Shown here: positions 2,051 through 52,165 of the stretch, in pieces | Layout: each line of letters starts with the position of its first letter | How positions within the stretch are numbered: the stretch's first letter is position 1 | Virus record (IMG/VR): IMGVR_UViG_3300027736_002225 | Strand: one strand, 5' to 3' | DNA: 64,000 nucleotides | Origin: a virus | Notes under the pieces: generated by a model | What the model was told of the DNA's origin: nothing | Databases searched by the model: none | The model's input: the letters and a program-made list of their open reading frames with translations, nothing else | Translations under genes and position numbers: made by a program

Positions 2051-2059
2051 ATGGTTAGG

Positions 2060-6928: not shown

Positions 6929-7744
6929 TTATTCTGTTGCGTTTGAACCGCACTTGGCGCGCTTAGCCTTAGTCAATGCCCCAAAATCTACCTGCCATTC
7001 GGTGCCTGGTGCAAGCTCTTTATGATTGGGTGGTAATTTAAAATCTACATTTGAAGCATTTTCAATGTCTGCAATTGGCATGCGAAACTTTGTCAAATCA
7101 TTTCCTAAATTAGGATATGGAGGAACGTGAGGAAACCCCCATCCAGCAACTTCATTTGTTTGATTGTTAATTACAATTTTATAAAAACCATGAGGAACAA
7201 CTACACCACTACCAATCTTTTTATCCTGTGCATTATAAATGCCGCCGACATAAATTGTGTAACTTTGATTACGTTGAACTGCCCATCCGCGAACAGATGT
7301 TTCTAATAGTTTCCAAATCCCTCTATTTAGACTTCCTGCCTGAGGTGCCATGTTTGTCATCAAGAATGATTCATATTCAACTTGTTGATCCCAACTTAAA
7401 TCTCCATCAGGACTCATATGACCTTTATCATATCCAGTTCCAACATAATCATCTACCCTAGGTCCGTTTTGAATAGACGCATCTGCTACAAAGGCATTTG
7501 TTCTTGGCCAACATCCTAGTGCATTTTGCGGAAGCAATTCATAGGTTACAAATTTAGGAAGTTTTGCTGCTGCATCATATCCTACAAGATACCCCTGTCG
7601 GCAAATTGGTTGAACTCCTTGGGTTGCGGGGAATCCATATGGTGCATGAACTTGACATGCTTGTACCGGCAATGGTTGACGCTGATCCCAACCATATGAG
7701 TATAAACTTAATGATGCTAGAAATGTAAAAATAATCTTTTTCAT
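6929..7744 (-). CDS. DNA/RNA non-specific endonuclease (NucA/Serratia type) with signal peptide
   Basis: YDKGHM, TNMAPQ, LNRGIW, VPHGFYKIV; N-terminal MKKIIFTFLASLSLYSYG. Confidence 0.9.
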   Translation of the reverse strand: MKKIIFTFLASLSLYSYGWDQRQPLPVQACQVHAPYGFPATQGVQPICRQGYLVGYDAAAKLPKFVTYELLPQNALGCWPRTNAFVADASIQNGPRVDDYVGTGYDKGHMSPDGDLSWDQQVEYESFLMTNMAPQAGSLNRGIWKLLETSVRGWAVQRNQSYTIYVGGIYNAQDKKIGSGVVVPHGFYKIVINNQTNEVAGWGFPHVPPYPNLGNDLTKFRMPIADIENASNVDFKLPPNHKELAPGTEWQVDFGALTKAKRAKCGSNATE

Positions 7745-10233
7745 GAGAATAATCCCTCTAATGTTGCCTGTGGTTTAGCAGTCCACCCCACACCATTTAA
7801 AATTGTTGTTAATGGTTCAAGAAATGATTTCTCAAACATCGTATCATAATCTACGTATTGTTTCAAATTAAACTCGTCGGGCATCTGATTAATAAATGCA
7901 ATACAATTTTCTTTAATCAAATTTGGCTCTTTTAAGTAAATGAATTTAATTTTGTCGCCTTCACTTATAAGTTCATACTTGCCGGTTAGTTGTTTTTCCT
8001 TTAAATAGAAATTATACAACAATGCGCCTCGAACGTGCATAGGAGTTCCTTGCCTATAAATTGAACTCCTATCTGTATATTTATCGACTCCGTTAACACC
8101 TCTAGGGAAAGCAATCAATTCTGGAGACATTTTTCTATACTTATATTCAAATTCTCGGATGTAATCTTGAATCTGTTGTTCTGTTCCAGTCAATGCCAAT
8201 TTAACTGCATGGCGCAATGCCTCACGAATAGGCTCAGGAGTAGACGACCTAACAATCTCCAATCCCATGACCTTTAATTTTGGTTCTTTGTATTGAACGC
8301 CCTCATTATTATAAACATTCAAGGCATATCTTTTCTTAGCAACCCAAATACCTCGGTCTGCAATAACTTCTCGTTTAAAATAAATCTTTGTATCAAAAGC
8401 ATTCGTGTAATCTGCTAAGCCGTCGCATGCTGCATTAATTGCCTTTTCAATTTTCTCATTACAAATCTTATCCAAGATCTCTACAATCTTTTCTTTCGGT
8501 TGATCTTTATAATACTTTTGTACTAATGGATCCAATGTGATATAGCATGCATCTGTATCCGAATAAAAAGAATACATAAAGTCTTTTGTTCCACAGACTT
8601 TATTTAAGTATTCATTCAAAGCTGCACCGACTGTCTGAATAATATACTGACCTGTAAGTGTAATACCTTCCGCAATATTAGAATCATAGAATCTAAAAAA
8701 TTCATTACCCCATGCCCCGAACAAAGAATTCAATTGAATCTTACGAGCCATCTGAAAATTGTTATACTTGGAAATCTCATTCTGATAAGACTTATCCTTT
8801 GTTTCTTCATACTTTGCTTGCGAAGCCAACATCAATTTTTTATAACGCTGACGATCATCAAACAATTTCTGCACAATCTCAGGAAACAATCCTTGCTTTT
8901 CTCTTGTGTAAGAATATCCATTTGCAGACATACAACAATTGTTGTCTTTTAGATCCTGCAGATTGTATTCTTTTTTCATTAATCTATCAACAGTTGTATC
9001 TTTTGTTGCTTGAATAACCTGCGTCTCGGGAGATAGATTATACTGCATAATAATACTTGGATACAGACTTGTCGCATCAAAAGATACGACCCAATCATAT
9101 TGTCCGGGTTTCGGTTCTTGGACATACGCTCCTACAATTTGTCGAGCAGGCTTACCTTCCCGCTGATGAACAATGATGTTCTTCTTATAAAGATGATTCC
9201 AAAGAATACAATCCCATGTTCTAACTGCCGAGAATACATCTACATAGTTACACTTTGCATCATATGCCATTGTCAAGATCAACTCAATAAGTCGCATCTT
9301 ATTTTCCAATTGGTCAATCAGTTCCGTATCGACTACGTTATATTCTACGAACTTTTGCCAATCATTTTTATAGAAATCTCGGAATGAAGAATATTCCTCG
9401 TATGACAATTTTTCTTTACCAAGTTCTACCTTAGCAATGTGATCTAGTTTATATGATTCTTGGGCACCATAAGTAAACTTCTTATACAGATCAAGATAGT
9501 CCAATGCAGCTACGCCAAGAATATCGTATGTCAATTCTGTCTTATTCATTCGAGTAAATTCTTTTGAATTCACTACATTCCAAGGAGACAATTGTCGAAG
9601 GAATTCATCTCCAAGTATTTTGGAAATTCGACTGCACAAATAAGGAATGTCGAAGAAGTCAATATTCCAACCTGTAATGATATGAGGATATCCATCGTCA
9701 ATCATAGATTGGATATATTTTTGAAATAGATCTTGCTCGTCCTTGCATTTAATATACTTATGATTTGGCTTTGTAACTTTAAAGTTCTTTGTACCAAATG
9801 TAACAATTTCTTTAGTATTATAATCTTGAGTGGTGATTAGTAGAACTTCTTCCATAGGATTTCGGACATTAGGGAATCCAAGTTCTGCAGATGTCTCAAT
9901 ATCCAAAGACCATATCTTTAACTGCGAAATATCAAAATCTACTTCGTCAGGAAATGTTTTTGTGATGTACTGATAGGCGTAATTTGTGTTGCCAAAAATC
10001 TCAAAATTGTCTACGTCGCTGTATCGTTTGACGTAATCTTTTGCTTCGTTAATACTTTCGAAAACAATTTCATCCAAATTTTCACCAAACAAAGATTTAT
10101 ACTTTGTTGGAGTTTTGGATTTCAAGAATAAACTAGGTTTAAATTCAATCTTATCTTGGACAGATTTGCCGTTATTGATTCCTCGAACAAGAATCTTGTT
10201 ACCATATTGATTGACACTAGTGTAAAACTTCAT
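7741..10233 (-). CDS. 43: family B DNA polymerase (gp43)
   Basis: DIET exonuclease motif, SFDATSLYPSII, KIQLNSLFG, YSDTD. Confidence 0.97.
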   Translation of the reverse strand: MKFYTSVNQYGNKILVRGINNGKSVQDKIEFKPSLFLKSKTPTKYKSLFGENLDEIVFESINEAKDYVKRYSDVDNFEIFGNTNYAYQYITKTFPDEVDFDISQLKIWSLDIETSAELGFPNVRNPMEEVLLITTQDYNTKEIVTFGTKNFKVTKPNHKYIKCKDEQDLFQKYIQSMIDDGYPHIITGWNIDFFDIPYLCSRISKILGDEFLRQLSPWNVVNSKEFTRMNKTELTYDILGVAALDYLDLYKKFTYGAQESYKLDHIAKVELGKEKLSYEEYSSFRDFYKNDWQKFVEYNVVDTELIDQLENKMRLIELILTMAYDAKCNYVDVFSAVRTWDCILWNHLYKKNIIVHQREGKPARQIVGAYVQEPKPGQYDWVVSFDATSLYPSIIMQYNLSPETQVIQATKDTTVDRLMKKEYNLQDLKDNNCCMSANGYSYTREKQGLFPEIVQKLFDDRQRYKKLMLASQAKYEETKDKSYQNEISKYNNFQMARKIQLNSLFGAWGNEFFRFYDSNIAEGITLTGQYIIQTVGAALNEYLNKVCGTKDFMYSFYSDTDACYITLDPLVQKYYKDQPKEKIVEILDKICNEKIEKAINAACDGLADYTNAFDTKIYFKREVIADRGIWVAKKRYALNVYNNEGVQYKEPKLKVMGLEIVRSSTPEPIREALRHAVKLALTGTEQQIQDYIREFEYKYRKMSPELIAFPRGVNGVDKYTDRSSIYRQGTPMHVRGALLYNFYLKEKQLTGKYELISEGDKIKFIYLKEPNLIKENCIAFINQMPDEFNLKQYVDYDTMFEKSFLEPLTTILNGVGWTAKPQATLEGLFS

Positions 10234-16875: not shown

Positions 16876-16876
16876 A

Positions 16877-18035: not shown

Positions 18036-18040
18036 ATAGT

Positions 18041-18048
18041 TATTTATA
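18041..18048 (-). promoter_or_regulatory. T4-type late promoter
   Basis: TATAAATA a few nt upstream of the iscU ATG. Confidence 0.6.
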
Positions 18049-18055
18049 CGGATTA

Positions 18056-18923: not shown

Positions 18924-18934
18924 AGCATTTACTG

Positions 18935-19912: not shown

Positions 19913-20107
19913 TTAATTATTAGAAACAATAATTGTATCTTCTAATTCTTTTTTCAATGCTGCAATTCTTTCTTCCAAAACAGAAATTGCTGTATTATAA
20001 TGACCCGTCCCTTCTTTCAAACGGTCAAAATAATACCTACGCAAAGTTTCTGCTTCTGTTTCTAGAACTGCGATATATTCTTCATTTGATGTATGGAAGA
20101 TTTTCAT
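19913..20107 (-). CDS. hypothetical protein
   Basis: 64-aa ORF coupled to gp45. Confidence 0.6.
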   Translation of the reverse strand: MKIFHTSNEEYIAVLETEAETLRRYYFDRLKEGTGHYNTAISVLEERIAALKKELEDTIIVSNN

Positions 20108-20760
20108 ACTACAGAATCCGGTTCCATTGCAATAAAATATTCTACAGATTTTGTAGCGTGTTTAAAGTGAAACAATTTCTTTTTAGAGATTGTAATTTCA
20201 TAAGCATCAGGAATTACTTTAAAATTATCTACAGACATATGGCATTCAAATGCATCTTTGCTTGAACCAATTGTACGTTTATACGTATTTGCTGTATCAT
20301 TTTTCTTATCCCCTACAGTAAGGACAACATTGCCATCCTTAGATGTTACTGAGATTGTTGGGGCAGCTGTAATGTTTGCTGCTTTAATAATCATATTAAT
20401 ATCTTCTGCGGTCAAGCTGAACTTGAAGTGAGAATCAATTTCAATAGATTTATCTGGAGCTGAAACAATAACGCTTGCGTTAGAATAGAAGTATTCAAAC
20501 TTGCCATTGTTCTTAGAAATGGTCAAAGACTTTTCACCGAATTCAACATCTTGATTTTCCATCAATGTTAGCAAAGCCAACAAAGAGTTTAGATCATAGA
20601 CAGGAACTTCAACAGGAAAGTCTTCAGCCACAGTTGCTTTAGCAAAAATGTTTTTTGCTGTACTGATTGTGGACAAAGTCTTTCCTTTACGAATCAAAAT
20701 GTTACTGTTGATCGCAGCAAAATTCTTTAATAGTTGGATTGTTTCATTACTAATTTGCAT
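20104..20760 (-). CDS. 45: sliding clamp (gp45)
   Basis: LLKNFAAINSNI, YDLNSLL, YFIAME; synteny. Confidence 0.9.
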   Translation of the reverse strand: MQISNETIQLLKNFAAINSNILIRKGKTLSTISTAKNIFAKATVAEDFPVEVPVYDLNSLLALLTLMENQDVEFGEKSLTISKNNGKFEYFYSNASVIVSAPDKSIEIDSHFKFSLTAEDINMIIKAANITAAPTISVTSKDGNVVLTVGDKKNDTANTYKRTIGSSKDAFECHMSVDNFKVIPDAYEITISKKKLFHFKHATKSVEYFIAMEPDSVV

Positions 20761-20779: not shown

Positions 20780-21088
20780 TCAAACAGGGTGGTGGTCAAT
20801 AGTTTTATCTGTATCGTTGACTTCGATATCATGTACATATAAAAGCATCAATGCGTAGTGTAACACCTTTAGAAGGTCTTGTCTATTCCTTCCTGCTTTT
20901 TTTCCGTACCTTTGGACATATTTCATGACGTTCCCTGCGGTGAATCCAACGCCATGTCCATTATCAATAATAAATTCCGTTGCTTGAAATTTATTCATTG
21001 AATAGTGTTGACCATATGTTTTATCAATATAGTCTTTAAATTCCTTAATAAGTTCGCCTTCGTTGTACTTATAATTTATTTCCGCCAT
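20780..21088 (-). CDS. DUF3310-like protein
   Basis: HYS...GFTAGNVMKYVQRYGKK...DLLKVLHY. Confidence 0.75.
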   Translation of the reverse strand: MAEINYKYNEGELIKEFKDYIDKTYGQHYSMNKFQATEFIIDNGHGVGFTAGNVMKYVQRYGKKAGRNRQDLLKVLHYALMLLYVHDIEVNDTDKTIDHHPV

Positions 21089-22445: not shown

Positions 22446-22456
22446 ATAATTTGCCT

Positions 22457-23155: not shown

Positions 23156-23156
23156 T

Positions 23157-26331: not shown

Positions 26332-26332
26332 A

Positions 26333-27121: not shown

Positions 27122-27125
27122 TATT

Positions 27126-33862: not shown

Positions 33863-33865
33863 AAT

Positions 33866-36337: not shown

Positions 36338-36346
36338 ATAACTTTC

Positions 36347-37357: not shown

Positions 37358-37391
37358 TTCAAACCTTATAATGAATTAATAACGACTTAAA

Positions 37392-37399
37392 TATTTATA
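37392..37399 (-). promoter_or_regulatory. T4-type late promoter of the sugar operon
   Basis: TATAAATA between the cobS-like terminator and gmd. Confidence 0.7.
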
Positions 37400-38635: not shown

Positions 38636-38646
38636 AATATAGTCCT

Positions 38647-38694
38647 GGGGATGGGGATGGGGATGGGGATGGGGATAGGGATAGGGATAGGGAT
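38647..38694 (+). repeat. hexamer tandem array (GGGGAT)5(AGGGAT)3
   Basis: Read directly from the sequence. Confidence 0.95.
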
Positions 38695-38705
38695 TTCACA
38701 AAATA

Positions 38706-38734
38706 ATTATAACATCTTTTGAAGATCGTGTCAA
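38706..38734 (-). promoter_or_regulatory. sigma70-type promoter of the cobS-like gene
   Basis: TTGACA-N17-TATAAT. Confidence 0.8.
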
Positions 38735-40899
38735 GCGATTTCTTCAATAAATTTGTTCAAAAGTATCCGATTCATCAATTTAGATTTACGATTCTTAATA
38801 AAAGCCTTCATAAGATCTTTTTTCGATGTATCGCTGGTCACTACCATTTCTCCATCTTCAATAACTAGATCATCCGAAACAACCAAAAAATACTTATCAT
38901 ATGCATATGTTGATAAAGAATAAAATTTGTCTTTTCGAATTTTGCCAATAATATTTGTAGAATCTTCTTTATTTTGCAGCCCACTTGTATCCAAAATTCT
39001 TTGCACAACTCCTCTTGAAGATCTGCTCATAATATAATATCCTACAAGATTTGTGTCTGTACGTTTTTTGAGCAAATCTAGAAGAGCTGCGGTAACAGGT
39101 TGACCAGGTGCAGCGTATCCTGATATTTTTGTTTTTGGATCAGTTACTACAATATTTGAAGATATTCGATAACCTAATCCATAATATGAATTTGCATCTC
39201 TTTGTGTACCTTCGGGAGTAACTATTTGATTCAAATAATTACCTTCTCCGTCTGTAAGGAAAATAGTATTAACAATATCCAATTTATACATTTCTTTAAA
39301 CACGGGTATAAAATGATTTGCAAATATAACCGCTTCATTTAAAGGAGTCGAATTTAGCTCCCATCCAGCTGGGATATCAGCATATCTTATATACCGAGAA
39401 TTAGTATAAATTGCACCAAATTGTAATAATTTTTTCTGCGCAAAATTATATTGAGCAGTTGTCATACTATTGGATAACAATTCAAAACTTTTATAAGCGT
39501 AACCATTTATTGCCAAATCTAATGGATTCTTTGAAAAAGTTGCATGATGTTTACCTGCAAGATATCCAGGAAGACCATACTTATTCTTAATAAATGATTC
39601 AACGACTCCGCCTGATGAATCTGTAAAAGAAAATACTCGGAAAGGAATATTTACTTTTTTGCAAAAATCTGCAAGCACTAGCGTCTGTTCAATTGTTTGA
39701 GTAATATTGTCGGTCATTGAACCTGACCAATCTATAAACATTATCATTCCATGATTCTTACCACCTGGAATTTTAGTAACACGTTTAAAAAGATCTTCAT
39801 TATATTTGTAACTAAAAATTTTATCTAGATTTAATTCTCCAGTTTTAGAAACTTTTGCTCGAGCAAATTGAGCTGCGTTTCGTTTTAGTTCAAACTCTTT
39901 AACAAGATATTGAATAAACTTGCCATTAGTTTGTTTGTAGTTTGCAAGGAGAGTATTTGCATCTTTGTGCCGGTCATTATTATCGAGCGATTCCCAATTA
40001 GTATTCTTATATAGGTAATCGTGAGGAATAATTACATCCTCAATTTTTACATTTGGTAAATTGAAATACTTATATGGGCGAACATCATTCGATAACAAAT
40101 CTGCTTCACGACTGCGAAATTCTTGATCTGTAATAGAACTTGGATCGTTCTTACCGGCATTTTTATTTTTTGCTCGAGATTCGCCTGTCTCACCGTCTTC
40201 GCCGTCTTGGTCATCATCGCCAAAATCATCAGAATCAGAATCAAATTCAATATCAAAGTCATCAGAGAATTCTCCATCGAGATCTTCGATGTCGCCGGTG
40301 ATTCTAAGTTTTTTACGTTGTTCTAATTTTACCTCATCCTCATTTATTGCCTTTTGATTGTTATACAATTCTTTTGCAATAGTTAGAACCTCGTCCCAAG
40401 ATTTTAGAGAGTCAATTCGTTTGATGTAAACCTGTTCCTCATCTGAAAAAGGTACAGCCATAAAAGGACCTACCTTAAAATGCAGATTGATACGATCAAT
40501 GAATGGCAGAGTATTTACATCAATATCGTTGATACCGAAGAAATCTTTTTCAACTAAATCTTTATATGCTTTATAAAAAGATGAACGTAGACCAGGGTAT
40601 CGAATTTTAATACATTTCTCGATGCGGGCATCTTCGATTACGTTAAGATAAGATTTGAATCCTGGAGTATGGCCACGCACCGCGTCGTGCCAACCATCGG
40701 GAGGAGTTTCCCAAGCATGCCCTACTTCATGCCCAACAAGAAGGTCATATATATCACCGCTCATTTCTTTCCAAATAGGAAGAACAAGAATTCGGTTCTT
40801 AGGATCAAAGTATGCGGTAGAAGTTTTCTTATGTTGCACAGAGATGTTTTCTTGTGCAAGCAGCTTTGCAAGAATAGATTTTGAGTTTGCTAGTGACAT
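38731..40899 (-). CDS. CobT-like protein: HExxH peptidase domain, acidic linker and vWA domain
   Basis: GHEVGH, NVIEDARIE, DWSGSM (MIDAS), STPL, FLTDGE. Confidence 0.85.
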   Translation of the reverse strand: MSLANSKSILAKLLAQENISVQHKKTSTAYFDPKNRILVLPIWKEMSGDIYDLLVGHEVGHAWETPPDGWHDAVRGHTPGFKSYLNVIEDARIEKCIKIRYPGLRSSFYKAYKDLVEKDFFGINDIDVNTLPFIDRINLHFKVGPFMAVPFSDEEQVYIKRIDSLKSWDEVLTIAKELYNNQKAINEDEVKLEQRKKLRITGDIEDLDGEFSDDFDIEFDSDSDDFGDDDQDGEDGETGESRAKNKNAGKNDPSSITDQEFRSREADLLSNDVRPYKYFNLPNVKIEDVIIPHDYLYKNTNWESLDNNDRHKDANTLLANYKQTNGKFIQYLVKEFELKRNAAQFARAKVSKTGELNLDKIFSYKYNEDLFKRVTKIPGGKNHGMIMFIDWSGSMTDNITQTIEQTLVLADFCKKVNIPFRVFSFTDSSGGVVESFIKNKYGLPGYLAGKHHATFSKNPLDLAINGYAYKSFELLSNSMTTAQYNFAQKKLLQFGAIYTNSRYIRYADIPAGWELNSTPLNEAVIFANHFIPVFKEMYKLDIVNTIFLTDGEGNYLNQIVTPEGTQRDANSYYGLGYRISSNIVVTDPKTKISGYAAPGQPVTAALLDLLKKRTDTNLVGYYIMSRSSRGVVQRILDTSGLQNKEDSTNIIGKIRKDKFYSLSTYAYDKYFLVVSDDLVIEDGEMVVTSDTSKKDLMKAFIKNRKSKLMNRILLNKFIEEIA

Positions 40900-40958: not shown

Positions 40959-41363
40959 TTACGCCGCGGGCGGACGTGTGATAGCCAAAATTTTAGATAT
41001 TTGAGCTTCTATAATGGGTTTTCTGTTCGGCCATTTGATAAAATCTTTATCGGGATTCTTCAAAAGATTTGCCAAAAGGGGCATGATTAAGGCTTCAACT
41101 TTGCTTAATTTTTCAGCAACATCTTTTTCAATTAATTGTCGATATGCATCGGTATCAAAATTTGCACCAGAACCAGCTTTTACAAGTTCTTCCAAATTAT
41201 CAACCTTATTTAAAAGTGCAGCAATTTTATTTTCAATACCCGAGGTATCTACAACAGGAGCAGCTACTTGTACAGGTTTTTCAACTATGGATTCTTCCGA
41301 ATCTACAGCAGTAAACCCAAAATCAAATATTTCAGTATATTCAGTTGGAATCTTTGTGCTCAT
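40959..41363 (-). CDS. conserved hypothetical phage protein
   Basis: FDFGFTAV and PLLANLLKNPDKDFIKWPNR motifs. Confidence 0.75.
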   Translation of the reverse strand: MSTKIPTEYTEIFDFGFTAVDSEESIVEKPVQVAAPVVDTSGIENKIAALLNKVDNLEELVKAGSGANFDTDAYRQLIEKDVAEKLSKVEALIMPLLANLLKNPDKDFIKWPNRKPIIEAQISKILAITRPPAA

Positions 41364-41916
41364 TTAGTGCCTCTACCATTGTTTTAACTGCGTACTTTTT
41401 AATTATCTTTTTACGTTTATTTTCAAATTTCTTTTTTGCAAAATCTAATTTAAATTTAGAAACTCGGTGTGTAAAATCTGTTCCATTCATATGATCAAAT
41501 TCATGTTGGAAAATTCTAGCTGTTAGTCCTTTGAATTCATTCTCAACAACTTCGCCTTTTTCATTTTGATATTTAACTTTAACGGTTGTTGGGCGTTTAA
41601 TATTTAGCATTATACCTGGATATGATAAACAACCTTCGTTATAATTTTCTTCTTTAACATTGTATTCAACAATTTCTGGATTGAATATTGCAATTTTTGT
41701 ATCACCTAAACCCATTACAAATACTCGCATATCAAGTCCTACTTGGTTAGCACTTAGACCAACGCCTCCCAATTGTTTCATTCTTTCAAATAGAACATTT
41801 GAAACATTAGTAGCACTTTTGCCATCCTTCTTAAAATCAAAAAGATTTGGAGTTTTTGTCATAACCTCCGCAGTAGGTTCAACTAAAGTTAATTTGTCTT
41901 TTCTTAATATAATCAT
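41341..41916 (-). CDS. def: peptide deformylase
   Basis: GVGLSANQ, EGCLS, QHEFDH. Confidence 0.95.
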   Translation of the reverse strand: MIILRKDKLTLVEPTAEVMTKTPNLFDFKKDGKSATNVSNVLFERMKQLGGVGLSANQVGLDMRVFVMGLGDTKIAIFNPEIVEYNVKEENYNEGCLSYPGIMLNIKRPTTVKVKYQNEKGEVVENEFKGLTARIFQHEFDHMNGTDFTHRVSKFKLDFAKKKFENKRKKIIKKYAVKTMVEALNEHKDSN

Positions 41917-44684: not shown

Positions 44685-45158
44685 TTAATCTTTAAATTCG
44701 TTATCTTCTCTATGTCCTACACGCATTGCCATGTTAGCATCAGTTTCTCTTACTTGCACTTTGCAACACCATACACGATCCTTTTCACCATAGTTAGGTA
44801 AGAAAATTGTGTTTATGTATTCATAAAGAAAATCGGCAATGCCCTCACATCCAGTCTTTTCAACTTCTGTAATCTTTGCTAATTTTAATGTGCCTAGATG
44901 CAATAGATGTTCTCGCATTGGATCATCCTGTGCAACTAACAATGTGTGGTCAAACCAGTCTTCAAGTAGACCTTTAAGTGGTTTTAGTCCACCAAAGTCC
45001 ATACACCAATTGCGGGCATCTAATGTATCACACTCAAATTCTAAATGGAATGAAAGTGCATATCCATGAATTAAATTGCAATGACTATCTGCACGCCATT
45101 GTCTATATGCTACGGGACCAATCTGATTATAAGTTTTTGTAGAAATGTATTTTGCCAT
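44685..45158 (-). CDS. queD: 6-carboxy-5,6,7,8-tetrahydropterin synthase QueD
   Basis: HCNLIHGY, DFGGLK, FDHTLL, GCE, RET. Confidence 0.85.
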   Translation of the reverse strand: MAKYISTKTYNQIGPVAYRQWRADSHCNLIHGYALSFHLEFECDTLDARNWCMDFGGLKPLKGLLEDWFDHTLLVAQDDPMREHLLHLGTLKLAKITEVEKTGCEGIADFLYEYINTIFLPNYGEKDRVWCCKVQVRETDANMAMRVGHREDNEFKD

Positions 45159-45164
45159 GTTTAT

Positions 45165-45259
45165 TCTCCTATGTTATCATAGGCGGCGGAATTTATAAAG
45201 CGGGACGATGCCGGTAGACCGCTATGTGATATATTATATATTACTTAAACATAGCGGTC
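45165..45259 (-). promoter_or_regulatory. switch-like structured leader of queD
   Basis: Pseudoknot, an SD-overlapping hairpin and an 11-bp inverted repeat; see findings. Confidence 0.55.
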
Positions 45260-45261
45260 AA
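45233..45261 (-). promoter_or_regulatory. sigma70-type promoter of queD
   Basis: TTGACC-N17-TATAAT. Confidence 0.65.
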
Positions 45262-46314
45262 TACATTAGCAGAAAAGAATTTTTCCGTTAAGTACGATGC
45301 TTGTTTGCGAACGTGATACTTATATTGATCGTGATTATTCATGTATTGAACAATTTTATAACATAAGTCTTGTCGATGCACTTCGTATGCTTCAAATGAT
45401 TCTGTCCATTCACTAGGATATTTGAACATATCATTGTACATTTCCGTATAGGATAAACGATCTGGCACCATAGGAATAGCATCTACAATGGCACCTTCGT
45501 AACAACTAATACCCAATGTTTCTTGTAGGTTTGCACTAAATACAATCTTAGCACGACCTAGCAGTTTGTGATATTCATGTTTATCTAATTGCGTATCTTG
45601 ACAAACAACAAACTCATATTGAGGTAAATGTTTAGCCAAGTCTCGGAAAATTTCAACTTGTTTTTCTGGTGCAAGTCGATGAGGGAACAAAATTAATTCG
45701 CGCTTCGGAGTTGTATTATAGTTTTCTAATGTGTCAACCATATATTCCATCGGCCAACCTGAGCGAACAATCTTACCTTGTTCAATCATAGTGATCTTCC
45801 ATTCGTCATCCACTGTTTCGCTAAATGTCTCAGCAAACAAATCAATATGAAAATCAGTAGCAAAATAGTTATGGTCAATAGCGTGAAAGAAACTTTGTTC
45901 GGCATGTCTCACCCAAGGAGCATCTCCAATGAGACGACCTAAAAAGTCTTGAGGATCATAACTGCCAGCGTGCCATAGTGCGTGAATAGTTACAGGAATC
46001 TGTAACAGCTCACTCATGTATTTTAAATTAATAATGCCAGGATGCCAAGCGTCAGTAAATAGAAAGTGATCACCAGCATTAATGGATCCGCTACAAAACA
46101 GGCGACCCATCTGCTCAACTTGACTAGATTTGTATATATTAGTCCCGCCAAAATTAAGGAAAGCACCAGGGGTAGTAACACTAGGAATATTAGTAGGTCC
46201 GCATATAACTTCAATATCCGCTGTCTTTTTAAGTAATTGGGGTACATGATATTTCCATTGTTCAGTGTATCGTGTGTCTACTGCCTCTAAATCAACAATA
46301 AATATTTTAGCCAT
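45241..46314 (-). CDS. GT-B glycosyltransferase
   Basis: FPHRLAPEK, ANLQETLGISCYEG (E-x7-E), PDRLSY. Confidence 0.75.
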   Translation of the reverse strand: MAKIFIVDLEAVDTRYTEQWKYHVPQLLKKTADIEVICGPTNIPSVTTPGAFLNFGGTNIYKSSQVEQMGRLFCSGSINAGDHFLFTDAWHPGIINLKYMSELLQIPVTIHALWHAGSYDPQDFLGRLIGDAPWVRHAEQSFFHAIDHNYFATDFHIDLFAETFSETVDDEWKITMIEQGKIVRSGWPMEYMVDTLENYNTTPKRELILFPHRLAPEKQVEIFRDLAKHLPQYEFVVCQDTQLDKHEYHKLLGRAKIVFSANLQETLGISCYEGAIVDAIPMVPDRLSYTEMYNDMFKYPSEWTESFEAYEVHRQDLCYKIVQYMNNHDQYKYHVRKQASYLTEKFFSANVLTAMFK

Positions 46315-46729
46315 GTGTTTGTTCAAAGTGAATTCTGCAACCGTTTTCGCCATCTTCTGATACTTCAATTACATAAGCACGTCCAGGCCATTTTGCAATT
46401 AATTTATCATATAGATCGTTTGCCATCATTTCACATGATTTATAATCCAATTGTAATGTGCCATCGCTATACCAGCGCTCCATAATTCTTTTTGCTTGAA
46501 TAAATTCAACATCTCGATTGTCATGAAATACTTCCATTTCGACCCGAAAATGGAACATATGCCGATGGCGATCTGCAAGAAAACTTACATCAAGCCAATG
46601 ATCTTCTGGGACTCCAAATCGACGTGTTGCCAATGATGGATCTGTTGCGGCATCGGGGTAACGATGAATGCCTTCTTTCTGAAAGGTAACCCAAATAAAA
46701 CTACTCTTTTTAACAATACTAGTATTCAT
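46307..46729 (-). CDS. QueD-like T-fold protein (candidate DpdL CDG decarboxylase)
   Basis: EGIH, HRHMFHF, SCE and VSEDGENG motifs parallel QueD; second paralog in the cluster. Confidence 0.55.
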   Translation of the reverse strand: MNTSIVKKSSFIWVTFQKEGIHRYPDAATDPSLATRRFGVPEDHWLDVSFLADRHRHMFHFRVEMEVFHDNRDVEFIQAKRIMERWYSDGTLQLDYKSCEMMANDLYDKLIAKWPGRAYVIEVSEDGENGCRIHFEQTHG

Positions 46730-46739
46730 AATATAATCC

Positions 46740-48026
46740 TTATGCAAATAAATTTTCTAATGACATCCGAGGCTGATGGCTTACAGATTCAGATTCCATA
46801 TATTTACCAACGTGCTTTTCCCAATGAGAAAAGTCTCCAATATCTTTAACTTCAAACAATGTAGCATACTCATTTTCGCAACCCTTATCTCTACAAAATC
46901 TAAGTAACTCGTCTTTAGATTCTAATAGGGTTGTAACATCAAGTGTGAAATTATGCACATTTGTCAATATGAAACAAAGACGTGCTTTCATAATGTCAAT
47001 AAACTTGCCGCCATTTTCAAGATACTTACCTACAGCAATGTTCATTAATTTATGATATTCTTCTGGAGTATATTCGGTACCACAAACACTATTGATTTCA
47101 TCTACAACTGTTCTATAGATGTTAGAATATTCTCTGCCCATTTTTACAGATGAGCCGCCATAACCATGTCGTGTTTTTTTACTATACGAGAAATAAAACA
47201 ATCCATTATCTAATGACATTGAATGTGTTGTAGAATCATAAGAGATTTCAATGTTCTCATACATTCCAGTCTGACTAAAAACCATATAGGGAAGCATACG
47301 ACGCAGTGCGCCTACCCCTAGAATGTGAAGATGAAATGGTTTCTTAAAGGGCATTACCTTAACATAGAATGCTCGTTTAACATCTTCAAGTTGCCCAGTA
47401 CCTAGTGCAGCAGATGCCATTGACACACCGCCGATACGATCATGATATGGTGCAGTGATTTCTTCAAGTAAAATATTTGCCCACTCAGCATAAGTCTCAT
47501 GACAAGCACCTTGAATGATTGCGAAAGGTCGACAATCACTTTTCATTTCAATAAACTTTTCAATCTGAGATTTAATATTTTGTCCCGTTTGCTTGGCATA
47601 ACTAGCAAAATTATCTCGGTCAAAATATCTACCCTTAGTATCAAGCTTTGCAGACTTGCCACTTGCATTAGTAATTATTACTGGGATCTCATCAAAGGAC
47701 ATTCCAATGTCTGCATGGGATGCTTGATTCTCATAAACGCTATTACGAACTTCTGGCGAATTAGGAATGCCACGTGTAATAATTTGCAGACCGCCAGAGT
47801 CGGCATGTATATTTTTAATCGCGGGTCTAAATTTTTGTAGACGTTTTCCAAATTGTTTTTCAGTAAACCCGTTATACAATAATGAGAACTGATGATTATT
47901 CATATTATGAACAGTCTTACCAATAAGGTCATTGATCATCTGCAATACTGCAGGATCATTACATTGTTCTGCACCAAGACGTAAGTACGCCGGTCCAGAA
48001 ATTACATATTCCATCTGTCTGCTCAT
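46740..48026 (-). CDS. dpdA: TGT-fold DNA-guanine transglycosylase (DpdA-like)
   Basis: ADSGG, SFDEIP, IIQG, HLHILGVG, SYDSTT motifs; lies inside the folE/queD/queE cluster. Confidence 0.75.
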   Translation of the reverse strand: MSRQMEYVISGPAYLRLGAEQCNDPAVLQMINDLIGKTVHNMNNHQFSLLYNGFTEKQFGKRLQKFRPAIKNIHADSGGLQIITRGIPNSPEVRNSVYENQASHADIGMSFDEIPVIITNASGKSAKLDTKGRYFDRDNFASYAKQTGQNIKSQIEKFIEMKSDCRPFAIIQGACHETYAEWANILLEEITAPYHDRIGGVSMASAALGTGQLEDVKRAFYVKVMPFKKPFHLHILGVGALRRMLPYMVFSQTGMYENIEISYDSTTHSMSLDNGLFYFSYSKKTRHGYGGSSVKMGREYSNIYRTVVDEINSVCGTEYTPEEYHKLMNIAVGKYLENGGKFIDIMKARLCFILTNVHNFTLDVTTLLESKDELLRFCRDKGCENEYATLFEVKDIGDFSHWEKHVGKYMESESVSHQPRMSLENLFA

Positions 48027-49390
48027 TCGAATAAACTTTCTAAAGTGCTTGAGGTATTTTGTTCATTGGGAACAAAATTTTTATCTTTTGATAGATAAGT
48101 GTGATTGTCTGTATAGATTATATTATACTTGTGCTTGTTTGTCAATACAGAACGGACATCATCAATAGATAAATCTTTTCTATTTAGATCAGTTATATAC
48201 TTTTTGTACTGAACCGTTTCGTATTCGTTAATTTTTGCTTTGCTAGAATTAGACTTTGTTGGTTTGAACAAATCAAATACATTAAACCATTCTCCAACAC
48301 CATTTAAGTCCATGGTCACTACGCGTTCTAATGCGCCAGTATTGTACCAATCAAACGGGCTTTTGTATTGTTCATACAATTTAAGTATTGTACTACTAAC
48401 ATCTTTTTTATCTACGCTAAAAAAATCTGTACCATTAAAGTTTTCTAACCAAGACATTCCTTTAAGTGCAACTGTTGGCATATGTCCAATACATTCATAG
48501 AATGCTAAGCCAAAACTTTCTCGTATTGCGGGATTATAAGCAACTCTAGCAGATGTTATAAAATCAACTTTTTCCTGTCCATATATCTCTGAGCGAATTT
48601 CAAATTTAGCATTAATTTCCTTTAACGCTGCTTCAAATTTTTTCGCACCAGTATCATTTGTAATAATTTTTGCAGGCAATTTTGTTTCTGCAATCATACG
48701 AACAAATTCCTCAGGATTCTTCCTTGGCTCCCAGCGACCAATCCATAATACACCTTCTCTAGATTTAGTATGAGGAGACAGCAATTCTTTTTCCGTCATT
48801 TGTATAGGTGTATAGTATGCGTCTTTACCTGACAATTTAATCTCATCAACATTTCTACGTGTTTGTGTGCCAATATAAATGCCGTTTACATCCATCAACT
48901 TAATAAAAAATTCATTGAAAGAATCTGAGAATTTGCTTTTTTGAGGACTGTCTTCCATAAAGACCAAATTCTCGTGATGCGTATAATATATGACTTGTAC
49001 TGAATCTTGAATAGATAGGGAATAGATTGCGGGAAATGATTCCACGGTGTTACAAATAACTACATCGTATAGATTGTCATTTAGAGCAGTCATAAAACAT
49101 TCTCTAAAATTAATCATTTTTTCAAAGTTATATGAATCCTCAAACATAAAAGTTTTGGCGTGTTTACTATAACTAAGTGGCTCTTTAGGTGCAATAACAT
49201 TAGCACCTTTAGATTGAAGATATGCACTAAAGTCTTTATTGGATGCCGGTTTATCCAATATAATATCAATTTTTATTCCAATAACAGAACAAGTCTCTAC
49301 AAAGGATTTTGCAAATTGTCCGATGCCACCATATGGAATTAAATGCTGATCGCTAATACAAAAAGCAATTCTCCTGTTGTAAATATTCAT
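48023..49390 (-). CDS. GT4-like (GT-B) glycosyltransferase
   Basis: GGIGQF, IGRWEPRKN, RESFGLAFYE (E-x7-E). Confidence 0.8.
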   Translation of the reverse strand: MNIYNRRIAFCISDQHLIPYGGIGQFAKSFVETCSVIGIKIDIILDKPASNKDFSAYLQSKGANVIAPKEPLSYSKHAKTFMFEDSYNFEKMINFRECFMTALNDNLYDVVICNTVESFPAIYSLSIQDSVQVIYYTHHENLVFMEDSPQKSKFSDSFNEFFIKLMDVNGIYIGTQTRRNVDEIKLSGKDAYYTPIQMTEKELLSPHTKSREGVLWIGRWEPRKNPEEFVRMIAETKLPAKIITNDTGAKKFEAALKEINAKFEIRSEIYGQEKVDFITSARVAYNPAIRESFGLAFYECIGHMPTVALKGMSWLENFNGTDFFSVDKKDVSSTILKLYEQYKSPFDWYNTGALERVVTMDLNGVGEWFNVFDLFKPTKSNSSKAKINEYETVQYKKYITDLNRKDLSIDDVRSVLTNKHKYNIIYTDNHTYLSKDKNFVPNEQNTSSTLESLFE

Positions 49391-49391
49391 A

Positions 49392-49901
49392 TCAATTACC
49401 CAAGATTTTAATTAAGTGTTTTGTTTGATGCATTGCGTCATCCAATGCATTGTGATATGTTCCTTGCCGTTCATCAGCAGGAATCCATTTGAATAATGCC
49501 TTTACAGTTCTGTAGCAACGATCGTCCCATGGATGCCATGGTGGTTTTCTGCCTGTATTGAAATAAGCATTTCCAAGAATAGTATTATCAAATACTGCAC
49601 CATTGCCCCACAAAGGAAGACTCTTTGGACCAAACCAAATTTCGAATTTGTCTAGTGCTTCTTGTAGTGAGATGTTGTTTTTTGTTAACTCTCGGAATGC
49701 TTCTTTGTTTTGCTTTGACCACCATTCAACAGTATCCTTGGCAATATGCAGGCCTGCTTCTTTGCATGACTTTATATCAATAGTGCAGTAAAACGTATCC
49801 AGTATTTTATCCCCTTCAAATTTTACTGCACCAATGGAACAAATTGCCGCATTTGATCTTGTTGACATTGTCTCCAAATCAACCATTACGTTTATAGTCA
49901 T
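49392..49901 (-). CDS. DEDDh 3'-5' exonuclease (DexA-like)
   Basis: MVDLET, GNGAVFD, HNALDDA. Confidence 0.85.
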
Positions 49902-50587
49902 TTTGAACGGGCGATGCTTAAGAATTCATTTCGTAGTGCAGGATCAGTTTTAAATCCGCCACCTAATTTACTTGTAACTGTAGAGCTACCAGTATCTTCT
50001 ACGCCTCGGCTCTTAACACAGTAATGCTGAGCATCAAGCATAACTGCAACATTATCTGTTTCCAAGATAAATTGCAGGGCATGGTAAATTTGTTCTGTCA
50101 AGCGTTCTTGAATCTGAGGACGCTTGCTAAAGTATTCTACGATACGATTGATTTTACTCAATCCAAGAACTTTATCTTTTGGGACATAAGCAACAGTTGC
50201 CAATCCATCAATAACTACAAAATGATGTTCACAATTACTTTGGACATTAACATTGCGCTCAACGACCATTTCATTATATTTCATCTTGTTATCAACTGTG
50301 GTACATTTAGGGAATGCGTCATAATCAAGTCCCCAAAAGATTTCATTGACATACATTCGGGCAACACGTTTTGGAGTATCACATAAACTATCATCTTCTA
50401 AATCAAGGCCCAGCACTCGCATAATTTCTGAAAAGTGAGACTCAATTACTTCAATCTTTGTTTTGCGATCAAGATCTAATCGAGTATTAGGATCTAATCG
50501 GGTAGGAGTCTCGACTCCCATTGCAACTAAATGCTGATGAACTTTTTGCCCCAATTCTGGGTCTGTTTTTGTCTTGTTATATGACAT
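49898..50587 (-). CDS. folE: GTP cyclohydrolase I
   Basis: [29 protein letters not shown]. Confidence 0.95.
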
Positions 50588-50651
50588 TTGAATCCTTCCT
50601 TACACGGATATGATGATTGAAAATTTTGTTACCTTTGTGTAACATTATTAT

Positions 50652-51509
50652 TTATGTTCCCCACTCATTCTTAAAAAGTGGTACTTGTAAACGATCGCTA
50701 TATCGAAGACCATTCTTCATTGCCATTTCTGCAACCTTTCGATTGTTCATAGCATAAACGCTTTCGACACCGCCTACCGGCATCAAATAAACAGGACCTT
50801 TAAACCCTGCAGATTTATATAGTTCAATTGCTTCCATTGCTTCTTCAGCATCTTCTTCAGTTGCAACTACAAACTTAAGATAAGTGTATCCAACGTCTTG
50901 ATATGCTGATACAATGTCGGGGCAAATTGCTTCTTCCCATTTTTCGCCGCTGACACTTAATTTTGGACTAACAGAAAATGTTAGTGCATTATATCCTCTG
51001 TCTTTACGACCAAGAGACCAATTAAGAAGAAATTGTCTGAATTCAGATGACAATGCCTGTGTACCATTTGTTTCAAACGTAATCTCTTTTAAAGATTTCA
51101 TTTTTTCATTATCTAGAAGATCTGGATACGATCGTTGCCAACCAAGTAATGGTTCGCCGCCCGTTATTACAAGATGTTCGTCTTCCCATTTCTTGTACGG
51201 AAGTATATCCATAATTGTATCGGCAATGTTATCAGTATCAAGTACAGGGCTAAGATGCTTAAAACGAGGATCCCAGCTAGCGTAAGAATCGCACCCTGTA
51301 CTAACAAGAGGCAAATCTTTATAGGAAAGAAACTTACGTACGTCAGCCGCGATATAATCAACTTCATTGCTAAATTCCCCTTTTGGCATTCCAAATCCAC
51401 TACAAGTGAAGTTACAACCAAATGTACGAAGAAAAACACTAGGTACGCCCATGTAGCGGCCTTCACCTTGTATACTATAAAACAATTCTGCAACTTTAAG
51501 CTTTGCCAT
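50652..51509 (-). CDS. queE: 7-carboxy-7-deazaguanine synthase QueE (radical SAM)
   Basis: FYSIQGEG, FLRTFGCNFTC...CDS, ITGGEP, FETNGT, SPK. Confidence 0.9.
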   Translation of the reverse strand: MAKLKVAELFYSIQGEGRYMGVPSVFLRTFGCNFTCSGFGMPKGEFSNEVDYIAADVRKFLSYKDLPLVSTGCDSYASWDPRFKHLSPVLDTDNIADTIMDILPYKKWEDEHLVITGGEPLLGWQRSYPDLLDNEKMKSLKEITFETNGTQALSSEFRQFLLNWSLGRKDRGYNALTFSVSPKLSVSGEKWEEAICPDIVSAYQDVGYTYLKFVVATEEDAEEAMEAIELYKSAGFKGPVYLMPVGGVESVYAMNNRKVAEMAMKNGLRYSDRLQVPLFKNEWGT

Positions 51510-51537
51510 CAAGACTCCAATAATTTAATTAACACTT

Positions 51538-51567
51538 ATTATATAGTAAATTAGTCATCCATGTCAA
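51538..51567 (-). promoter_or_regulatory. sigma70-type promoter of the queE cluster
   Basis: TTGACA-N18-TATAAT. Confidence 0.6.
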
Positions 51568-52165
51568 GAGGATTGTCTGAATCTATTTCAACTTTTTTAA
51601 CCTTTTTAGGGATATTTATGTTGCGTTTTTCAATATCAATATTGTCCATTTGCCGTTTTAAGTAATCCAAAAATTGGTGACTAAATTCACCGTTATCATG
51701 ATCTTGCAAGATCAAGGAATCAATATCCATATTCTCAATCATCTTATACTTAGTGGCCTGTTGTTTCTTTTCCTTTTGAATTCTGCGAATAAAGGCAAAG
51801 TAAATAATCTGAGTATAATATGCAAATGGATTTGAAGATTTACTTGGGTCAAATTTTTGTACTGCAGTTAAACAATTTTCAATCCCGTCCGAAATCATAT
51901 CATCTTTAAAAGTATAATTAATAAAATTAGATTTGTATGAAAGGTGTGTAGCAATCTTTATAAAACATTCGCCAATATATCTAGTAACAACGGGGGTTTC
52001 TTCTCCTCGTTCTTTAGCAGCATCGACTTGTTCTTTATATGCTATTAAGGCTTCTAAAAACTCTTTATTATTTACATAATGTGCAGTAACCGAAGGTTTC
52101 TTTTCCTTAATGGAAAGTTTTCCTTCGTCTGATTCTATTATTCCCATAGTCGTGTCTTTCATCAT
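51551..52165 (-). CDS. 55: late-transcription sigma factor (gp55)
   Basis: HYVNNKEF, DMISDGIENC, NPFAYYTQI, RRIQKEKKQ. Confidence 0.95.
   Translation of the reverse strand: MMKDTTMGIIESDEGKLSIKEKKPSVTAHYVNNKEFLEALIAYKEQVDAAKERGEETPVVTRYIGECFIKIATHLSYKSNFINYTFKDDMISDGIENCLTAVQKFDPSKSSNPFAYYTQIIYFAFIRRIQKEKKQQATKYKMIENMDIDSLILQDHDNGEFSHQFLDYLKRQMDNIDIEKRNINIPKKVKKVEIDSDNPLDMDD

Follow-up and report, generated by a model that had tools for sequence, protein, structure and literature searches.

A QueC-less 7-deazaguanine DNA-modification cluster with two associated glycosyltransferases in an uncultured T4-like phage

The gene cluster

The DNA analysed here, called the window, is a 64,000-nucleotide stretch (IMG/VR record IMGVR_UViG_3300027736_002225) from an uncultured aquatic T4-like phage. 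Eight genes lie between positions 44685 and 51512, all on the minus strand, in the order QueE, FolE, DEDD exonuclease, GTa, DpdA2-type transglycosylase, DpdL, GTb and QueD. Stops and starts mostly overlap, by 4 nt for FolE/Exo and for GTa/DpdA and by 8 nt for DpdL/GTb; the exonuclease and GTa are separated by a 1-nt gap. The cluster is surrounded by replication and recombination genes (gp55, SbcCD, UvsY, helicase). Elsewhere in the window, at 21-37 kb, a large operon of 16 kb encoding nucleotide-sugar enzymes and glycosyltransferases (GTs) is found behind a TATAAATA late promoter, meaning that this phage clearly glycosylates something else too. No late promoter was found for the QueE-to-QueD cluster itself.

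QueE, the radical-SAM synthase of 7-carboxy-7-deazaguanine (CDG; 50652..51512), matches phrog_2076 (2e-54) and scores above the cut-off of PF04055, the QueE NCBIfam models giving weak matches. FolE, GTP cyclohydrolase I (49898..50587), is recognized by PF01227 (8.6e-62) and, above cut-off, by NF006824 (1e-96). QueD, the 6-carboxytetrahydropterin synthase (44685..45158), is a clade variant with CxxxHGY, identified by PF01242 (3e-15), phrog_2389 (1e-40) and alignment. The Rv2179c-like DEDD 3'-5' exonuclease (49392..49901; PF16473, 5e-46; phrog_255) is kept in most relatives and in the cyanophage isolate BUCT-ZZ01, and is missing from one subclade; it is a conserved member of the cluster with a putative role in the pathway.

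A QueC-less pathway with DpdA2 and DpdL

The 428-residue product of 46740..48026 is a homologue of the DpdA2 transglycosylase of phage VH7D, as judged from a tblastn match (E 2e-51, 32.6% identity over 83% of the protein) and a full-length alignment with the proteins of VH7D, ACP17, Ps15, X1 and BUCT-ZZ01, in which 40 columns are invariant, including the motifs DSGGLQ (D76-S-G-G-L-Q81) and SYDS..H. Its identity is 32% to the ACP17 protein and 37.5% to that of BUCT-ZZ01 (tblastn). A sequence search of the PDB gave no matches, and the TIGR00430 Tgt model aligns with residues 63-246 at 8e-5, far below its cut-off. The VH7D enzyme was shown to insert preQ1, preQ0 and CDG into DNA (PMC10516641). 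These data, together with the polymerase-type tail described below, point to DNA rather than tRNA as the probable substrate of the window's enzyme.

The next gene, a QueD paralogue (ORF 46307..46747, likely ATG at 46729), encodes LADRHRHMF, which fits LxxxHRHxF in place of CxxxHGH. This is the signature of DpdL, a proposed CDG decarboxylase that gave negative results when tested heterologously (PMC10516641). The signature is conserved in the aligned homologues of ACP17, BUCT-ZZ01 and the PA5oct type, and the window's protein, 50% identical to DpdL of ACP17 and 33% to that of phiST, is likewise a putative CDG decarboxylase. QueC (PF06508) was not found in the window, in a 98%-identical fragment (G001) or in five relatives, which include a 222-kb record rated 100% complete (G002). 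In the window, G001 and G002, DpdL co-occurs with FolE, QueD, QueE and DpdA, without QueC.

Much of what an earlier note had read from this DNA is borne out by these results. All eight genes are present in the order that it gave, queE-folE-exonuclease-GT4-dpdA-like-QueD-like-GT-B-queD, and the absence of queC, which it had noticed in the window, extends to G001 and all five relatives searched. Its DpdA-like call is now a DpdA2 assignment over the full length of the protein; of the families that it had suggested comparing, Tgt gave a match below cut-off. The class of pathway that it had outlined, a QueC-less, DpdL-type 7-deazaguanine DNA system, is supported.

The two glycosyltransferases

GTa (48023..49390) and GTb (45241..46314; the ORF extends to 46368, with ATG 46314 as the likely start) were assigned to no family above threshold by Pfam or PHROGs. 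With Glycos_transf_1, GTa reaches 16.7 bits, short of the gathering score of 26.4, and GTb gives no match; that score is exceeded by homologues from X1 (45.5 bits), L043 (28.0 bits) and BUCT-ZZ01 (26.5 bits). The AF2 model of GTa (pLDDT 88.6) has a GT-B/GT4 fold, with SPS, MshA, WlaC, BshA and PimA as best Foldseek matches (E 1e-13 to 1e-10). That of GTb (pLDDT 95.6) has the same fold; its best matches are BshA, glycogen synthase, GlgM, LmbT and MshA, with tetrahydrobiopterin glucosyltransferase ranking lower. The Foldseek probability is 1.00 for the GTa and GTb models against MshA, BshA, PimA, SPS and WlaC, and a GTb-family profile matches the putative GT 8xsg at 1e-4. The EX7E residues E291 and E299 of GTa are invariant across 26 homologues; in GTb, E273 is invariant and E265 at least 90% conserved among 49 representatives. 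On the strength of these models, both proteins are real GT-B/GT4 enzymes with EX7E, GTa being of the retaining type, and the two GT-B enzymes of the earlier note are confirmed as such.

The two proteins differ in their architecture. In GTa, a small C-terminal domain is followed by a floppy linker and by the polymerase-type tail TLESLFE. GTb, which is of the ACP17/PA5oct type, has a net charge of about -14 and no clamp tail. The pI values are 6.0 and 5.5, and neither enzyme is basic, unlike many DNA-binding enzymes. GTb resembles small-molecule GT4s, and may act before DpdA, on the free base and not on DNA.

A polymerase-type tail on DpdA and GTa

The T4-type DNA polymerase gp43 of the window (7741..10233, minus strand; phrog_262, 1035 bits) ends in TLEGLFS, DpdA in SLENLFA and GTa in TLESLFE, all of which fit [ST]LE.LF. 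This pattern occurs three times in the 26,898 ORF residues of the window, always at the C-terminus of one of these three proteins, against a mean of 0.0015 expected from shuffled sequences. The tail is kept in all relatives and co-varies: in BUCT-ZZ01, FF replaces LF in polymerase, DpdA and GTa alike. The window's gp55 homologue lacks the motif. In T4, gp43, gp55 and gp33 bind the clamp through C-termini of a similar hydrophobic-acidic kind, which are interchangeable (PMC2988020). By its sequence, [ST]LE.LF is a T4-type sliding-clamp epitope, and we infer from it that DpdA and GTa bind the clamp. The gp45 homologue (20104..20760, minus strand; phrog_223, 9e-65), near clamp-loader genes at 18477-19876, is the docking platform that we propose. 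Since DpdA and GTa share the epitope of the polymerase, both probably act on DNA at the replication fork.

When GTa residues 376-455 were modelled with the clamp trimer, the complex scored 0.44, in the low band (0.60 or less), against 0.01 for the best control, which counts as weak support for binding; runs agreed in at least 61% of contacts, with a partner pLDDT of at least 46. Of 80 solved complexes, 58 reach the mark set for this test, as do 2 of 110 mismatched pairs; passes with a score of 0.60 or less came from only 7 of the 80 solved complexes and from both of these mismatches. A solved RB69 clamp-peptide complex exists, and the GTa-clamp pass may reflect likeness to it rather than binding.

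Conservation of the cluster, and other readings of it

In 53 IMG/VR loci, DpdA is 68-98% identical to that of the window. Every contig among them that is long enough shows the order sig55-QueE-FolE-(Exo)-GTa-DpdA-DpdL-[slot]-QueD-SbcD-SbcC, a conservation far beyond chance. GTa lies immediately upstream of DpdA in 52 of the 52 informative loci across this range of identity, and also in BUCT-ZZ01. Each of the more distant DpdA2+DpdL lineages (L055-58, L061, ACP17, X1) has a GT4-like gene that adjoins dpdA or dpdL or is at most two genes away. The slot of some relatives holds nucleotide-sugar enzymes, an NAD epimerase/dehydratase or a UDP-glucose dehydrogenase.

An ordinary system could be imagined in which dDG is the sole modification, as it is in phiST DNA, and in which the GTs hitch-hike in the cluster and work with the 16-kb sugar operon to glycosylate the cell surface or the virion; the presence of that operon speaks for it. 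Hitch-hiking, however, explains neither an adjacency kept in more than 50 contigs and at least seven isolate lineages, nor the 4-nt and 8-nt gene overlaps, nor the tail of GTa, and the cluster is itself devoid of a late promoter. We hold this to be very unlikely.

GTb has a different distribution, following DpdL rather than DpdA across lineages. Genes of its type are found within 4 kb of DpdL, mostly adjoining it, in ACP17, PA5oct-like phages (eleven records), Phosso, X1/BUDD and BCSR5, and also near DpdL in BUCT-ZZ01; the ACP17 homologue (40%) is placed between dpdA and dpdL. This tracking of DpdL, the strong acidity and missing clamp tail of GTb, and its likeness to BshA, MshA, LmbT and, further down the list, tetrahydrobiopterin glucosyltransferase would suit a metabolic sugar step, in which the substrate of GTb, and perhaps of GTa, is a free intermediate, a pterin or a deazapurine, and the DNA ends as plain dDG or dCDG. 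The sugar would then be a transient activating or protecting group, or the enzymes would make a soluble glycoside. With only DpdL and DpdA of ACP17, E. coli made no dDG (PMC10516641), consistent with the lack of an earlier step. The polymerase-type tail of GTa and its translational coupling to DpdA point instead to a step at the level of DNA, and phiST makes dDG without any GT (PMC10516641). A purely metabolic role seems unlikely to us.

The association of GTs with DpdL or DpdA spans unrelated backbones, namely T4-like phages, Arenbergviridae jumbo phages and Phosso (469 kb), and neither GT nor DpdL was found within 12-14 kb around dpdA in the QueC-type DpdA2 phages Ps15 and VH7D. From this distribution of sequences, both GTs are evolutionarily locked to dpdA/dpdL, and sugar chemistry is tied to the deazaguanine pathway. 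The earlier note had proposed following the GT-dpdA-QueD-like-GT synteny into related phages, and had taken a lack of co-occurrence of the GTs with dpdA as evidence against its idea; the co-occurrence is there, as is the synteny, with GTa-DpdA at every informative locus and GTb-type genes near DpdL in several isolate lineages.

These ties argue against a target unrelated to deazaguanine, be it another base, the DNA backbone or a clamp client among the replisome proteins, with the placement of the GT genes being regulatory. For such a target one can cite the replication and recombination genes around the cluster, and the fact that a clamp tail places GTa at the clamp and says nothing of what it modifies. 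Against it also stand the checked QueC-type loci, which lack the GTs, and the absence of a hydroxymethylase that would give pyrimidines a handle. A search of the complete relative G002 and of three partial ones gave no thymidylate-synthase-type hydroxymethylase (PF00303); hmC and hmU were rejected as sugar acceptors because the complete relative has none. We judge this reading quite improbable.

A proposed mechanism

The explanation that we favour, with somewhat better than even confidence, is that the module carries out replication-coupled hypermodification of DNA and leaves a sugar-bearing 7-deazaguanine in virion DNA. From the established functions of their families, FolE, QueD and QueE would produce CDG. 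Without QueC there would be no route to preQ0, and DpdL would turn CDG into 7-deazaguanine or a related base. By homology with the VH7D enzyme, DpdA2, held at the fork through its C-terminal peptide docked on the phage sliding clamp, would exchange guanine for that base in double-stranded DNA. GTa, translationally coupled to DpdA and bearing the same docking peptide, would then glycosylate the inserted base, with an NDP-sugar as donor. GTb might add a second sugar or, more likely, place a sugar on the free base before insertion, a role that we favour because of its acidic surface and small-molecule GT4 look-alikes. The end product would be a sugar-bearing 7-deazaguanine nucleotide, shielding virion DNA against host nucleases. 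PA5oct, which carries GTb and DpdL, resists restriction at G-containing sites through a chemically undefined modification (PMC12191111).

Several observations weigh against this favoured explanation. If DpdL makes plain 7-deazaguanine, the base would offer no O or N handle at C7, and we know of no retaining GT4 enzymes that make C-glycosides. A GTa homologue at locus L076 (48% identity) lies beside QueE, QueD and an epimerase, has a different tail, and has no DpdA within 6 kb. Finally, phiST has DpdL but no GT and its DNA still contains plain dDG (PMC10516641), which shows that dDG can be formed without a GT. The earlier note's idea that both GTs decorate an inserted deazaguanine is partly supported: the GT genes are tied to dpdA/dpdL, the glycosylated base is a candidate product, and GTb may work on the free base. 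The DNA probably carries a sugar-decorated purine.

We give an even chance to the broader proposal that this lineage, ACP17, BUCT-ZZ01, PA5oct-like phages and many uncultured aquatic phages have glycosylated 7-deazaguanine in their DNA, installed at the fork by a clamp-riding transglycosylase and glycosyltransferase, with a swappable cassette for the second GT or sugar enzyme. If so, these phages would contain a hypermodified purine of an as yet undescribed chemical kind, and the cassette would vary the sugar between related phages.

Comparison with known systems

In T4, as proposed here, a GT-B enzyme sugars a non-canonical base post-replicatively, and there are two transferases per phage. 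The earlier note's analogy with the T4 alpha- and beta-glucosyltransferases is one of logic only: the window's enzymes are GT4-like with EX7E, AGT and BGT are absent among the listed fold matches (cellular GT4/GT5), the base is a purine analogue, and no hydroxymethylase was found in relatives. To our knowledge, T4 glucosyltransferases are not clamp-tethered. The gp45 clients of T4 and RB69 (gp43, gp55, gp33; PMC2988020) share with DpdA and GTa a short hydrophobic-acidic C-terminal peptide after a variable linker. They differ in that the clients predicted here, a transglycosylase and a glycosyltransferase, are enzymes that modify DNA, and in that the window's gp55 is without the motif.

The only sugar-decorated 7-deazaguanines in nucleic acid that we know of are mannosyl- and galactosyl-queuosine. 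These occur in animal tRNA and receive their sugar once the base has been built into the polymer (PMC12518689, PMC7384130). They are thus RNA modifications, and they carry the sugar on hydroxyls of the cyclopentenediol side chain of queuosine, which this phage is unable to make. No sugar-decorated 7-deazaguanine in phage DNA was found in any paper of the literature searched.

Vibrio phage VH7D/nt-1 (preQ0, preQ1, mdPreQ1, dG+) has in common with the window the DpdA2 subfamily, a T4-like backbone and a C-terminal tail of the LF-type family; it differs in carrying QueC and QueF and in having no DpdL or GT beside dpdA. Modification levels in these systems are low (PMC10516641). The closest systems are the DpdL-type dDG systems of Cellulophaga phage phiST (DpdA3, DpdL, FolE, QueD, QueE) and Acidovorax phage ACP17 (DpdA2, DpdL) (Cui, Hutinet et al., NAR 2023, PMC10516641), a paper silent on glycosyltransferases, in which "glycosyl" occurs 0 times. 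Like them, the window has FolE, QueD and QueE without QueC, DpdL with LxxxHRHxF and a DpdA transglycosylase, and its core is this known system; the GT layer upon it is undescribed in the literature searched. phiST differs in having no GT and plain dDG in its DNA. ACP17 shows 32% identity in DpdA2, 50% in DpdL, 72% in QueD and 40% in its GTb homologue. To the phiST and ACP17 systems the window adds GTa, and the clamp tails on its DpdA and GTa.

Phage and genome setting

The window comes from an aquatic T4-like myophage that has not been cultured. Among the genes on it are those for the gp43 polymerase, the gp45 clamp (20104-20760) and gp44/62 loaders, UvsX, UvsY, a gp41-type helicase and SbcCD, together with a gp55 sigma factor and the capsid, portal and sheath proteins. 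The nearest matches of the capsid protein (63-66% identity) are Pelagibacter, Methylophilales and Synechococcus myophages, and these are absent from the DpdA matches; comparison of the cluster with isolate phages by megablast gave no match. The window also has auxiliary genes that are typical for T4-like phages of aquatic habitats, at 37454-40899, 41341-41916, 17649-18110 and 16366-16932; they encode a CobS-like AAA ATPase, a large CobT-like/peptidase protein, a peptide deformylase, a NifU-like protein and Hsp20.

A QueC-less deazaguanine core

On the minus strand, at 44685-51512, lie in this order the genes for QueE, FolE, a DEDD exonuclease, the 455-aa GT4-type glycosyltransferase GTa (48023-49390), a 428-aa DpdA-like protein (46740-48026), a 146-aa DpdL (46307-46747), the 357-aa GT4-type glycosyltransferase GTb and QueD, exactly the arrangement described in an earlier note on this DNA. 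The genes are tightly packed, with overlaps of 4 nt and 8 nt. The 428-aa protein aligns over its full length with DpdA2 from Vibrio phage VH7D (E 2e-51) and with its counterparts in phages ACP17 and BUCT-ZZ01, and it retains the TGT-type motif DSGGLQ. The earlier dpdA-like call is thereby made more precise: as judged from the motif and the homology to the VH7D enzyme, the protein belongs to the DpdA2 subfamily of these transglycosylases, which swap the base into DNA. A DpdA2 profile had no match among PDB sequences. The VH7D enzyme was shown experimentally to put preQ1, preQ0 and, weakly, 7-carboxy-7-deazaguanine (CDG) into DNA (PMC10516641). The 146-aa protein contains LADRHRHMF, which corresponds to the LxxxHRHxF signature defining DpdL, a proposed CDG decarboxylase, and is 50% identical to the DpdL of ACP17 and 33% to that of phiST.

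The absence of queC, which the earlier note had reported for the window, extends to a fragment 98% identical to it and to five relatives, including a 222-kb record rated complete; this search covered relatives rather than the whole genome of the window's phage. Since DpdA2 and DpdL are present and QueC was not found, the core is a QueC-less system of the ACP17/phiST type, which is already known biology.

In QueD (44685-45158), which had no match among PDB sequences, CNLIHGY stands in place of the published signature CxxxHGH. The QueD of ACP17, BUCT-ZZ01 and related contigs shares this change from His to Tyr (alignment A6).

Two glycosyltransferases locked to the pathway

GTa and GTb are barely detected by Pfam. 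Their AlphaFold models are confident (pLDDT 88.6 and 95.6, respectively) and adopt GT-B folds, the best structural matches being retaining GT4-type enzymes (MshA, BshA, PimA, sucrose-phosphate synthase and WlaC). The EX7E motif is kept in both proteins: E291 and E299 are invariant in GTa, as is E273 in GTb, where E265 is nearly invariant. On the strength of these models and of the motif, both predicted glycosyltransferases are real, as had been claimed. FolE, a PTPS-like enzyme and a glycosyltransferase could also make up a pterin glycoside pathway, and tetrahydrobiopterin glucosyltransferase does appear among the GT4 fold matches; it is just one of many, and this pathway was rejected, QueE and DpdA favouring deazapurine chemistry.

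The glycosyltransferases are locked to the deazaguanine pathway. DpdA was found in 58 IMG/VR loci, 53 of them at 68-98% identity. Within this identity range, GTa directly precedes dpdA in 52 of the 52 loci where upstream sequence is present, and dpdL follows dpdA in every locus with downstream sequence. In the isolate BUCT-ZZ01, the genes for FolE, GTa, DpdA, DpdL and a second glycosyltransferase are arranged in the identical order. Distant lineages carrying DpdA2 and DpdL (L055-58, L061, ACP17 and X1/BUDD) lack GTa, and each has a GT4-like gene adjoining dpdA/dpdL or at most two genes away. GTb homologues occur near DpdL in Phosso, PA5oct-like jumbo phages, ACP17, X1/BUDD, BCSR5 and BUCT-ZZ01, and also in 240-260-kb metagenomic contigs, where they are 75% identical to the window copy; GTb tracks DpdL, not DpdA. 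Neither a glycosyltransferase nor DpdL was found adjoining dpdA in the QueC-bearing DpdA2 phages Ps15 and VH7D. In addition, relatives' clusters contain nucleotide-sugar enzymes, namely a NAD epimerase/dehydratase after the second glycosyltransferase and a UDP-glucose dehydrogenase after GTb.

The slot after dpdL is occupied in the window (45241-46314) and in its 98% identical fragment by a single GTb of the ACP17/PA5oct type, 75% identical to the copies on the jumbo-like contigs L064 and L066. In sister phages (L009, 11713-13860; L043, 11726-13895) the same slot holds a 390-aa glycosyltransferase (23% identity) and a NAD epimerase/dehydratase. This difference, in which the window and the fragment are unusual within their clade, looks like the swap of a sugar cassette.

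Other arrangements were seen at related loci. On contig L076 (6001-8177), a GTa homologue (48% identity) with the C-terminal tail NLFEGL, different from other GTa tails, lies beside QueE, QueD, FolE, an epimerase, a cytidylyltransferase-like gene and a Vut_1/YhhQ-type transporter; DpdA and DpdL were not found within 6 kb. At the distant DpdL-DpdA locus L061, a gene directly upstream of dpdL (1456-3069) encodes a 537-aa protein that contains DUF7487 and shows a weak, heparan-sulfate N-deacetylase-like match, and the GT4-like gene is two genes downstream of dpdA. The QueC-type DpdA2 cluster of Stenotrophomonas phage Ps15 (L062, 4505-6240) has an annotated myo-inositol-1-phosphate synthase and a phosphoribosyltransferase between folE and queC; the BUCT-ZZ01 and PA5oct-like clusters also contain phosphoribosyltransferase genes.

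A C-terminal tail shared with the polymerase

DpdA ends in SLENLFA, GTa in TLESLFE and the phage's own polymerase in TLEGLFS, a resemblance first noticed in the DpdA alignment. Across the window, whose 189 ORFs total 26,898 residues, the pattern [ST]LE.LF occurs three times, always at the C-terminus of one of these proteins, and has a mean of 0.0015 occurrences in shuffled sequences. All relatives keep the tails, which also co-vary: FF replaces LF in the polymerase, DpdA and GTa of BUCT-ZZ01 alike, and the polymerase and DpdA tails of ACP17, Ps15 and X1 also match each other. The tail is not found in GTb. The gp55 late sigma homologue (51551-52165) has an acidic end, NPLDMDD, without the pattern. 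In T4, gp43, gp55 and gp33 bind the sliding clamp through C-terminal epitopes that are hydrophobic-acidic, similar to one another and interchangeable (PMC2988020). A complex prediction for the clamp trimer and GTa residues 376-455 lends weak support, with a score of 0.44 against 0.01 for the best control, in a range (0.60 or less) where passes comprise only 7 of 80 solved complexes plus both of the mismatched pairs that passed; overall, 58 of the 80 solved complexes passed, against 2 of 110 mismatched pairs. Contact agreement between runs was at least 61%, and partner pLDDT at least 46. Because an RB69 clamp-peptide complex has already been solved, this prediction is a likeness at most.

Proposed mechanism

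CDG would be made by FolE, QueD and QueE, in keeping with the established functions of these families, and may then be processed by DpdL in the role proposed for it in the literature. DpdA, tethered to the clamp, would exchange the deazapurine base into newly made DNA; GTa, presumably translated from one message with DpdA and likewise tethered to the clamp, would put the sugar on at the DNA level. The place of GTb is less clear: it might act on the free base, glycosylating it ahead of insertion, or else attach a second sugar. The former is suggested by its strongly acidic character (net charge about -14), by best structural matches that use small-molecule acceptors, and by its tracking of DpdL over DpdA. 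ACP17 DpdL and DpdA alone produced no plain 7-deazaguanine in DNA (dDG) in E. coli (PMC10516641). The ACP17 GTb homologue is located between dpdA and dpdL, and its action on the free base before insertion would explain this absence.

The main weakness of placing a sugar on deazaguanine is chemical, plain 7-deazaguanine being without an obvious acceptor atom. Furthermore, phiST has a DpdL system that ends at dDG and needs no glycosyltransferase (PMC10516641). The earlier note had invoked the T4 glucosyltransferases as a model. Glycosylation of hmC or hmU in the T4 manner was rejected, such an acceptor being unlikely because the complete relative has no thymidylate-synthase-family gene. The QueC-less deazaguanine system and its pathway-linked glycosyltransferases stand, the T4-style acceptor is unlikely, and a sugar-bearing deazaguanine is partly supported.

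A 16-kb sugar operon

An operon of about 17 genes for nucleotide-sugar synthesis and transfer lies on the minus strand at 21076-37399. It encodes a GT2, an FkbM methyltransferase, split TPP enzymes, an E1/transketolase-like protein, a zinc ADH, a PfkB kinase, several epimerases/dehydratases, including a strong GDP-mannose 4,6-dehydratase match, two aminotransferases and a GT10 fucosyltransferase. Since a late promoter, TATAAATA (37392-37399), precedes this operon whereas none was found at the deazaguanine cluster, a link between the two is unproven, and the operon was set aside as the source of the sugar. It probably serves another glycosylation target, for which the virion, the host surface and DNA are candidates, and it is not required for the mechanism proposed here.

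Significance and relation to known systems

The literature searched contained no report of a deazaguanine carrying a sugar in DNA. The substituents on the eight phage 7-deazaguanine DNA bases known so far are all small, and sugars in DNA are known on hydroxymethyl-pyrimidines, not on a purine analogue. If true, a deazaguanine with a sugar would constitute a new chemistry of DNA. DNA bearing it would probably differ in its sensitivity to restriction enzymes, type IV and END-type nucleases and CRISPR, and would behave differently in nanopore and PacBio sequencing. The sugar-bearing base may also account for the failure of the two ACP17 enzymes to give a product in E. coli, and clamp-tethered base exchange and glycosylation would explain high replacement levels by post-replicative enzymes. 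The system yields a specific chemical prediction and, with several carriers in culture, is open to direct testing.

The 2023 paper defining DpdL does not mention glycosyltransferases (PMC10516641), and restriction tests indicated a modified G in PA5oct without determination of its chemistry (PMC12191111). The nearest precedent for a sugar-bearing deazaguanine is the glycosylated queuosine of animal tRNA (PMC12518689, PMC7384130). The system described here is a variant of the known DpdL-type deazaguanine system, to which a layer of glycosyltransferases is added.
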